Shown in pieces: positions 1 through 2,526 of a DNA stretch of 48,949 nucleotides. Both the position numbers and the translations under genes were made by a program. Source of the DNA: Escherichia phage BEU51; sequence record OM632672.1; one strand, 5' to 3'. Numbering within the stretch: the first letter of the stretch is position 1; every line of letters starts with the position of its first letter. The notes under the pieces are model-generated. The model was not told where the DNA came from and did not search any database. It worked only from the letters and a program-made list of their open reading frames with translations.

Positions 1-2526
1 ATGCAAGTAGCTGACTCTACTGAACTGACCACATCAGCAACGTTGGGTGCTCAAGATGCTATGGCCTTCGGTATTTCTGAAGACCCAGCATTCTTCCAAA
101 TACTCAGTGCTAACCTCTATTCTAATCAGAAACTGGCAATGGTACGTGAGACATTGTGCAATAGCTGGGATGCTCATATTGAGGGGGATAAAACAGATAT
201 TCCTATCCATGTAACCATTGATAAAGATGGTTTCCTTATCTTCCGTGACTATGGTTCTGGTATTCCTAAAGATAAGATTCAAGAGGTCTATGGGGTATAT
301 GGTGCATCTACCAAGAAAGCTAATACTGCTTCCACTGGTGGCTTTGGCTTAGGATGTAAATCTCCTATGGCCTATACAGACAGTTTTACAGTCACATCTA
401 TGTGTGACGGAACCAAGACTGTCTATCACATTGCTAAATCTTCTGTTGAGACTAACGGTAAACCAGGGATTATTCCTATCGTTAGCGTACCTACTGAAGA
501 ATCAGGGCTTGAAGTTAAAATTCAGCTTCAGTCAGAAGATATTTTAGAAATTGATTCATATATTCGAGCCATTGTATTACATGGTGAGATTAAATGTATT
601 TACTGCAATCAGTATACAGGACCAAATACAGTAGAGTTATTGCCTGTACTGGGTATGTCTTTTGAACCAGGTAGCTATAACCTAGACCATAACACATGGC
701 ATAAATATTACATGGGCAGTCATTCAATATTTATCCGTTATGGTAATGTTATGTACCCTGCTTTGGATACTCCTGCTACACATGAAGCATTAAAACTGGT
801 TAAACAGTTTATGCAGGTTATTAACTGTAGTCGTATCGTTGTTCAGGCTGCCCCATCATCACTAGCTGTAGCACCTAGCCGTGAAACACTGTCATCTCAA
901 AAAATGACCGAAGACGGTATCGTAAATTTGGCTGTAGCTTTAGTAGATAATATGGAAGCAGATATTAAAGCTCGTCTTCCAAATGCTATTGAATATATTG
1001 GGAAGGCTATTAAAGAATATAGTCCTCACCGTTTTGAAGTAAATAGTTATTTGCCTTACACCAATTTAGTGCCTGATGTTATTGTCAGTCGTTATATGTC
1101 CTCTACTTTATTCAGTAAGCAATATGCCCATCTGTGTAAGAAATGGGGAAATATGGAAATTGACCGTCAACTTGAACATCCTGCACTGGCTCATTTCTCT
1201 GGTTCTCAAAAAGCCCATCTCCGTAAGCATTTAAAGAGGGCTAAGAATTTACGTAATTACAGGGAATTAACTAAAGTATTTACTGATATGGCTATTAAGC
1301 CAATGTTCAAAACCTTTGCTAAATTGGGGATTACTAAAGGTATTTCCCTATTTCATTATCAATACGGTGTTGAACTGTGGCGTAATAATATTGTTAATAG
1401 TGTCCGTAGAATACACTCATTAAACTTCATGACTTATAGTTCTAAGAAGTGCCGTGTATTTGTTACCCCACGTATTACCAATATTGAAGATAGTCTGGCT
1501 GGGTATCCAGAGTTTGATAATCTTTCTACTGAGACACTGGTAAAATATAACTCAATCATTGTCAAAGTTGGAACCAAGAAAGGTGAAGCAGAAGCTATGA
1601 CTAATCTGCTCACTAAAGCAGGATACGAAGTCATTAATATGGCTGAATATCATGAGTGGGATTGTATAGCTCGTAGACGTAAAGAGGAACAAGAGGCTAA
1701 ATTAGCCATTTCCAAATTACAAGCTAAGAAGACTACTAATAAGAAAAAGGTTAGTCCTAATCGTCTTATTAGTATGAATATCCTTGAAATACCAAAAGAG
1801 CATCGTAGCTATTCGAGTGAAGTATGTGGTTCTCACTACGCTTCTCGTTCTCATGACCGAATGGTTGATGTAGATACTCCCCAGTATTACATCATGCAGG
1901 AAGATATTAATAACTACACAGGAAGACTTGGTGTTCTTTCTATGTGGCAATTAACCCCTGCTACCATTAAAGCTGTGACTGTTGTTTGTCGTAATAAAAT
2001 TGAACGTAATAAAGCTATTAAGCGAGGTGCTGTTCATTTGGATGAATGGACTGCTCCGTATATTGCTTCAGTTCTTACATCCAAACAATTCATTAAGTAT
2101 GTCACTAAAGAACGTCAGAAAACGTTAAGTGATATTGGTATTTACTCCAAACACCTCAGATTACTGAGAGAACTGGATATTACATATGCCCCATTGAAAG
2201 GTCTGCGTTATGACCCAGAACTGGAGAATGCTTATCTCTTCTTACAAAGTAGTAGCTACCCTAAGCTACGTGCATTGTTAGGGAAGGGTCTGATTACTGA
2301 AGAAGAGTATTACTTCCTCAGTGATGTTGATGTGCATTGCAAGACTTTCAGTAAGTACTCGGAACTTCGTAGGATACCGAAGATGTTCCTTGATATTGAT
2401 GCTGGGGGTTATATGTTGGCTGCATGTACTGTAGACACATTGCTTCGTGAAATCGAACAATTCCCTGAATCAATCCCTGCAATCAAACTGCTTGTAAAAG
2501 CTGCTCTTAAACGGAATACAGACTGA
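1..2526 (+). CDS. GHKL-superfamily (Bergerat-fold) ATPase-domain protein, possibly rIIA-like
   Basis: 841-aa ORF; near the N-terminus ETLCNSWDAH (N-box E..N..DA), RDYGSGIP (G1 D.G.G) and TGGFGLGCKSP (G2) occur in the order diagnostic of GHKL ATPases; ORF begins at window base 1 so the true 5' end cannot be verified. Confidence 0.6.
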   Translation: MQVADSTELTTSATLGAQDAMAFGISEDPAFFQILSANLYSNQKLAMVRETLCNSWDAHIEGDKTDIPIHVTIDKDGFLIFRDYGSGIPKDKIQEVYGVYGASTKKANTASTGGFGLGCKSPMAYTDSFTVTSMCDGTKTVYHIAKSSVETNGKPGIIPIVSVPTEESGLEVKIQLQSEDILEIDSYIRAIVLHGEIKCIYCNQYTGPNTVELLPVLGMSFEPGSYNLDHNTWHKYYMGSHSIFIRYGNVMYPALDTPATHEALKLVKQFMQVINCSRIVVQAAPSSLAVAPSRETLSSQKMTEDGIVNLAVALVDNMEADIKARLPNAIEYIGKAIKEYSPHRFEVNSYLPYTNLVPDVIVSRYMSSTLFSKQYAHLCKKWGNMEIDRQLEHPALAHFSGSQKAHLRKHLKRAKNLRNYRELTKVFTDMAIKPMFKTFAKLGITKGISLFHYQYGVELWRNNIVNSVRRIHSLNFMTYSSKKCRVFVTPRITNIEDSLAGYPEFDNLSTETLVKYNSIIVKVGTKKGEAEAMTNLLTKAGYEVINMAEYHEWDCIARRRKEEQEAKLAISKLQAKKTTNKKKVSPNRLISMNILEIPKEHRSYSSEVCGSHYASRSHDRMVDVDTPQYYIMQEDINNYTGRLGVLSMWQLTPATIKAVTVVCRNKIERNKAIKRGAVHLDEWTAPYIASVLTSKQFIKYVTKERQKTLSDIGIYSKHLRLLRELDITYAPLKGLRYDPELENAYLFLQSSSYPKLRALLGKGLITEEEYYFLSDVDVHCKTFSKYSELRRIPKMFLDIDAGGYMLAACTVDTLLREIEQFPESIPAIKLLVKAALKRNTD

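Follow-up and report, generated by a model that had tools for sequence, protein, structure and literature searches.

The open reading frame (ORF) that opens a 48,949-nucleotide (nt) stretch of DNA from Escherichia phage BEU51 (record OM632672.1; the whole stretch is hereafter called the window) encodes a known protein, the rIIA of an N4-type (Enquatrovirus) coliphage. It runs on the plus strand from an ATG at base 1 to a TGA at 2524-2526 and specifies 841 amino acids. The best explanation of the data, to which we give a probability of about 0.88, is that this is a complete rIIA gene displaced from its native site, that its product carries an ATPase module of the GyrB/Hsp90/MutL/MORC class and that, together with rIIB, it acts as a non-essential counter-defence against the RexAB system. 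The main value of the analysis is a correction, in that the isolation of rIIA from rIIB and its adjacency to the early genes would both arise from a "start gene" having been cut and pasted in the record, with no rotation of the sequence.

The gene (1..2526, plus strand) is a complete coding sequence and the orthologue of phage N4 gp33 ("rIIA-like protein", ABK54402.1; EF056009 15460..17985), which is equal in length and differs by 11 substitutions, 830 of the 841 residues being the same (98.7%) and the nucleotide identity reaching 98.1%. Among the PHROGs profiles, phrog_2979 (RIIA) was matched over its full length (E=1.6e-262, residues 1-837 against positions 1-845 of 846) and phrog_612, the T4-type rIIA family, at E=1.9e-65. 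BLASTP aligned residues 6-308 with RIIA of phage T4, the founding member (NP_049616.1, 725 amino acids), at 27% identity over 315 residues (E=4e-24). The rIIA-like assignment, which the original prediction had offered tentatively while proposing a rIIA profile search as a check, is thus borne out. Homology between the two proteins covers the N-terminal ~310 residues, with shared N-box, G1 and G2 motifs and a shared APSRE(A/T)LS loop, whereas the C-terminal 500 residues have no significant similarity. The DNA of the ORF is 100% identical in five further Escherichia phage records (BEU5, BEU13, BEU14, BEU42 and BEU44), which derive from Enquatrovirus isolates from sewage in Russia; no publications on the BEU phages were found in the literature searched, and the records of BEU5, BEU42 and BEU44, which were inspected, carry the flag UNVERIFIED_ORG. 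A blastn search of the window detected no second rIIA copy elsewhere in it.

Native site of rIIA and its partner rIIB

We mapped the window onto BEU5 and N4 using BLAST coordinates and the junction sequences as read. Window positions 1-2526 correspond to BEU5 1-2526, positions 2527-18010 to BEU5 55374-70857 and positions 25001-48949 to BEU5 9517-33453, the last of which places window 18011 at BEU5 2527; compared with the five sibling records, the window matched none of them end to end. Since the sequence following the rIIA stop is BEU5 55374 onwards and not 2527 onwards, the junction at 2526..2527 appears artificial and joins the rIIA stop codon to the last 26 nt of an N4-type genome. Apart from one mismatch, window 2527-2552 is the same as the final 26 nt of the N4 GenBank record; N4 position 1 falls at window 2553, and the early genes (gp1, gp2 and onwards) come next. 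It thus seems that the contig behind the record began 26 nt to the left of the conventional N4 left end, a linear genome having been assembled as a collapsed circle. N4 has terminal repeats.

The native site of the gene (ATG to TGA) is recognizable at 18010..18011 as a putative excision scar, where the window reads aaaattcg followed directly by tgaaacgaaatt, while N4 and BEU5 have ...gactgATGaaacgaaatt with rIIA between. Position 18010 is the base preceding the N4 rIIA start, and within window 18001-18020 the left half (agaaaattcg) belongs to the rIIA ribosome-binding region and the right half (tgaaacgaaa) is the beginning of rIIB minus the A of its ATG. The native ribosome-binding site of rIIA, a GGAG at 17999-18002 with an 8-nt spacer (17999..18010, plus strand), was thus left at the excision site, and when BEU5 is read as a circle the same ribosome-binding sequence ends the record directly before the rIIA ATG. 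The stop codon of gp32 (TAA, 17983-17985) is followed by an in-frame TAA at 17990-17992, 21 nt before the native rIIA ATG. Because the native context contains both this in-frame stop and the GGAG, rIIA can be regarded as a complete gene, and the possibility, which the original prediction had kept in view, that it is a 3' fragment of a longer gene is ruled out by the native upstream sequence (17983-18010). Its remark that the ORF starts exactly at the window edge holds for the sequence as given and reflects how the record was constructed, and its placing of the gene ahead of the early block misleads, the adjacency being artificial.

The rIIB-like gene, orthologue of N4 gp34, lies at 18010..20100 on the plus strand (696 amino acids). 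Aligned with the N4 rIIB-like protein, its product is identical at 687 of 697 positions, counting the stop. The PHROGs profile phrog_2886 (RIIB) was matched at E=1e-200, and BLASTP aligned 158 residues with the core at the C-terminus of T4 RIIB (E=6e-16). T4 RIIB has 312 amino acids, whereas the N4-type protein is twice as long, and the common core amounts to only ~160 residues. In the window this gene opens with an accidental GTG, its native ATG having lost the A, which doubles as the final base of the rIIA TGA and moved away with rIIA. The original prediction had noted that no rIIB-like partner follows rIIA and had suggested a search for one elsewhere. As a description of the window this was correct, the next ORFs being N4 gp1, gp2 and onwards, none of them rIIB-like; as a ground for doubting the assignment it fell away once the search located rIIB at its native place.

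The natural order of the two genes is documented well beyond these records. In phage N4, rIIA (15460..17985) and rIIB (17985..20075) overlap by 1 nt (tgATG), and BEU5 shows the same abutting arrangement with a 1-nt overlap. The rIIA match also touches a rIIB annotation in eight further annotated relatives, besides N4 and BEU5. On a distant N4-like contig with a 34%-identical rIIA, the genes run Thy1, a small ORF, rIIA, rIIB (Pfam Phage_T4_rIIB), helicase and DNA polymerase; since the order is kept even there, rIIA-rIIB adjacency is deeply conserved. T4 and N4 are alike in that the two genes are adjacent and co-oriented, with rIIA first.

Two observations concern the pair as a unit. One PHROGs family annotated as "RIIB lysis inhibitor" (phrog_609, 1055 positions) matches the rIIA ATPase module with positions 21-308 and the rIIB core with positions 866-1049; this span over rIIA-like and rIIB-like parts suggests that the family probably consists of natural rIIA-rIIB fusion proteins, which would fit a physical complex of rIIA and rIIB. 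Just past the rIIB stop, in window 20100-20160, there is a GC-rich hairpin (GCTCCGG...CTGGAGC) followed by a short T-containing tract, which may act as the terminator of the rIIA-rIIB unit.

Taken together, the junctions indicate that rIIA was removed from 18010/18011, with its ends precisely at the ATG and the TGA, and put ahead of an otherwise colinear genome, and we interpret this displacement as an artefact of record processing and not as biology, because the breakpoints fall to the base on the rIIA start and stop codons and because the same operation can be seen, with varying results, in sibling records. In BEU44 (OM632670.1), rIIA stands reverse-complemented at positions 1..2526 with unrelated sequence after it, and the native site carries an identical scar (aaaattcg joined to tgaaacg) at ~17255. 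In BEU42 (OM632669.1), rIIA is followed at 2526/2527 by yet another sequence, and in BEU5, BEU13 and BEU14 it is followed at the record start by rIIB, as in a correctly rotated record. Such a pattern is consistent with a script intended to start every record at rIIA that sometimes moved the gene rather than rotating the circular contig. The arrangement could instead be real, with rIIA transferred to the left end of the genome and rIIB translated from the old rIIA ribosome-binding site. In favour of this, the window taken by itself shows no internal contradiction, and excision creates, 8 nt past the GGAG, a GTG in the rIIB frame from which the gene could still be expressed. We nonetheless judge such a translocation very improbable, since it would have had to respect both ends of the coding sequence to the base, leave the gene at base 1 with neither ribosome-binding site nor promoter and join it to the terminal 26 nt of N4, which are not a recombination-prone repeat. 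Furthermore, the same ORF occupies 1..2526 in five sibling GenBank records, in three contexts and both orientations, and stands beside rIIB in N4, in BEU5, in the annotations of the eight further relatives and in the 34%-identical contig. Users of BEU-type records who took the artefactual arrangement at face value would miscall rIIB, whose start codon lacks its first base, and would infer a false rearrangement.

The N-terminal ATPase module of rIIA

The layout of rIIA, an N-terminal GHKL domain followed by a variable C-terminus, has been described earlier (PMC7824862), and the window protein has this layout. The GHKL domain as such is therefore already published, and what is added here is a somewhat sharper classification of the ATPase module. 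The three GHKL motifs occur within the first ~130 residues, in the expected order and where the original prediction had placed them. Motif I, the N-box (R49-E50-T-L-C-N54-S-W-D57-A58-H59; 145..177, plus strand), aligns with LRELISNASDA of HtpG. Across a family set of 32 homologues (33-56% identity), its residues R49, E50, N54, D57, A58 and H59 are invariant, E50 being a candidate general base and N54 a candidate Mg2+ ligand. Motif II, the G1 box (D83-Y-G-S-G87; 247..261, plus strand), has invariant D83, G85 and G87, and motif III, the G2 box or ATP-lid hinge (G113-G-F-G-L-G118; 337..354, plus strand), lies in a stretch that is invariant from T112 to G118.

The N-terminal 300-330 residues go beyond a lone ATP-binding domain and form a two-domain module of the GyrB/Hsp90/MutL/MORC type (residues ~17-330; 49..990, plus strand), in which the Bergerat fold is followed by a second, transducer-like domain. 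We favour this reading because the family profile, its alignment with HtpG, the structural model and the structure search agree. Searched against PDB sequences, the family profile recovered GRP94 (5.8e-6), Topo VI-B (8.4e-6) and HtpG (8e-4), and hhalign aligned it with residues 3-212 of E. coli HtpG with a probability of 96.5% (E=7.5e-10). An AlphaFold2 model built from the family alignment had a mean predicted local distance difference test (pLDDT) score of 82, falling below 50 at residues 109-117, which form the lid and are expected to be mobile or disordered. With this model as query, the top 42 Foldseek matches were all chains of the Hsp90 family (E ~1e-10). By itself, the window protein matched Pfam HATPase_c over residues 47-120 (E=1.4e-4) with 22.7 bits, below the curated cut-off of 26.4 and weak if taken alone, yet HATPase_c was matched by 19 of the 32 homologues and HATPase_c_3 by 20 (E<=1e-3). 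The GHKL ATPase domain claimed by the original prediction is thus supported by the HATPase_c search it had proposed and, as a Bergerat fold, by both profile and structure comparison.

The remainder of the protein, a family-specific region making up its C-terminal two thirds (898..2523, plus strand), consists of a helical bundle, a small alpha/beta region and a helical C-terminus. For the C-terminal ~500 residues no relative of known structure was detectable, and a sequence search of the PDB found no solved structure of rIIA. Pfam matches to SHOCT and SHOCT_2 at residues 755-770 (E=0.04-0.06) were far under the cut-offs and were dismissed as noise. A histidine kinase was also considered and rejected, as the protein has no DHp/HisKA domain with a phospho-acceptor histidine accompanied by a kinase-type ATP-binding domain.

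The best structural and profile matches to rIIA come from the Hsp90 family (HtpG, TRAP1 and GRP94), over the N-terminal domain and the first part of the middle domain. Signatures held in common are LYSN...(L/V)RE..(S/C)N..DA, DxGxG and GxFGxG, with SRE.L as a possible further equivalent. Profile and structure comparison both indicate an Hsp90-type N-terminal domain in rIIA, while a full Hsp90 middle domain and a C-terminal dimerisation domain were not found in it. We therefore classify the module, from sequence and model, as GHL-type and nearest to Hsp90, without placing rIIA in the Hsp90 family itself.

Within the ATPase module lies a conserved loop (A291-P-S-R294-E295-T-L-S298; 871..894, plus strand) that may be a gamma-phosphate sensor. 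P292, R294 and E295 are invariant in the 32 homologues, L297 and S298 nearly so, and the aligned stretch of T4 RIIA reads APSREALS. In Hsp90 proteins a middle-domain loop, NVSREILQ in HtpG, holds an arginine that contacts the ATP gamma-phosphate. The rIIA loop, APSRE(T/A)LS, resembles this HtpG loop, and the best local hhalign alignment of residues 200-345 with the HtpG middle domain lands exactly on this loop, though at E=0.24. Residues 289-301, which include the loop, are a low-confidence part of the AlphaFold2 model. These data make it a suggestive counterpart of the catalytic-arginine loop of Hsp90. The structural classification thus yields candidate catalytic residues for mutagenesis, namely E50, N54, D83 and R294.

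Function of the rIIA-rIIB pair

Published work points to counter-defence as the role of the pair. CRISPRi-ART knock-down of either RIIA or RIIB in N4 lowered the plating efficiency on hosts carrying lambda RexAB and left it unaffected without Rex, and T4 and three other phages gave the same anti-Rex result (PMC11879866). T4 transposon libraries confirmed the conditional essentiality (bioRxiv 10.1101/2025.11.20.689424), and the rIIAB locus of Enquatrovirus phages was remarked upon in the BASEL paper (PMC8594841). T4 RIIA and N4 rIIA are thus alike in being paired with rIIB and needed against lambda RexAB. RIIB alone can also set off a bacterial gasdermin defence (PMC10312443), so these proteins are in turn sensed by hosts.

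We propose that rIIA and rIIB, translationally coupled in their native order, would form a non-essential counter-defence module of the middle region that lets the phage grow on hosts with the lambda RexAB abortive-infection system. In this scheme rIIA would bind and hydrolyse ATP through E50, N54, D83 and the lid at residues 113-118, with R294 of the invariant APSRE loop perhaps acting as phosphate sensor. Turnover of ATP may then drive a nucleotide-dependent cycle of closure or dimerisation, as in other ATPases of this class, and the C-terminal region could pass the effects of the cycle on to rIIB or a host target, with the result that membrane depolarisation of the Rex type would be prevented or tolerated. 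A further-reaching version, which we regard as possible though rather doubtful, is that rIIA proteins are Hsp90-like ATP-driven clamps, with R294 corresponding to the Hsp90 catalytic arginine, whose chaperone-like cycle with rIIB neutralises Rex-type abortive infection. If true, it would provide a concrete and testable mechanism for a gene pair whose mode of action has been sought since the 1950s. In either version, rIIA/rIIB is a widespread anti-Rex counter-defence module.

Several points weigh against the overall interpretation of a displaced rIIA with an ATPase-driven anti-Rex role. The score of the protein itself against HATPase_c lies under the curated threshold, and the putative role of R294 is read from motif resemblance, at the hhalign E-value given above. 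No measured ATPase activity of any rIIA was found in the literature searched. Neither rIIA nor rIIB has a hydrophobic segment of transmembrane strength (best 19-residue Kyte-Doolittle means of 1.27 and 0.88, respectively), and direct membrane action is therefore not evident from the sequence. Finally, the record artefact was deduced from the sibling records and the exact ORF-boundary breakpoints.

Two other functions have to be set against counter-defence. The gene could encode a literal lysis inhibitor that delays lysis of the infected cell and has no counter-defence action, as the PHROG and GenBank name "RIIA lysis inhibitor" implies; r mutants of T4 were originally defined by rapid lysis, and the possibility has been repeated in genome papers on the N4 family (PMC3915230). 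Against it, the N4 knock-downs were harmless on hosts without Rex and had a clear effect on RexAB hosts (PMC11879866), and the T4 annotation ties the rapid-lysis phenotype to lysogens, via prophage genes; we accordingly consider this reading improbable. More improbable still, to the point that we give it hardly any weight, is a DNA-manipulating GHKL enzyme, that is, a topoisomerase ATPase subunit or a protein of MutL/MORC type that works on phage DNA. The related GHL and MORC modules (GyrB/ParE 43 kDa, MutL LN40, MORC2/3 and Topo VI-B) do resemble rIIA, yet the similarity is confined to the ATPase module, and rIIA differs from them in its C-terminal region, in its role and in being without DNA-handling domains, no Toprim, endonuclease, CW, coiled-coil or DNA-binding domain having been detected with Pfam and NCBIfam. 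In addition, the match to the rIIA family is ~250 orders of magnitude stronger, and Hsp90 proteins ranked above topoisomerases in both structure searches. Counter-defence against RexAB by a displaced but complete rIIA, acting with rIIB, thus remains the interpretation that we prefer.

Other features of the window

A scan of window 1-3200 for sigma-70 promoters gave no enrichment (6 found against 10.7 expected). Directly past gp1, at 3044-3063, lies a strong terminator-like hairpin (GGAGGCTCC TCGG AGTCTCC followed by TTTT), the only clear one of this type in the scan of 1-3200. Over window 25001-48949 the alignments with BEU13 and BEU42 are gapless (23949 nt), and the corresponding span is 12 nt shorter in BEU5 and BEU14, an alignment difference that indicates small indel polymorphism among the sibling isolates. 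The window also contains four clustered tRNA genes on the plus strand (33193-33871), namely Asn-GTT, Ser-TGA, Thr-TGT and Pro-TGG.

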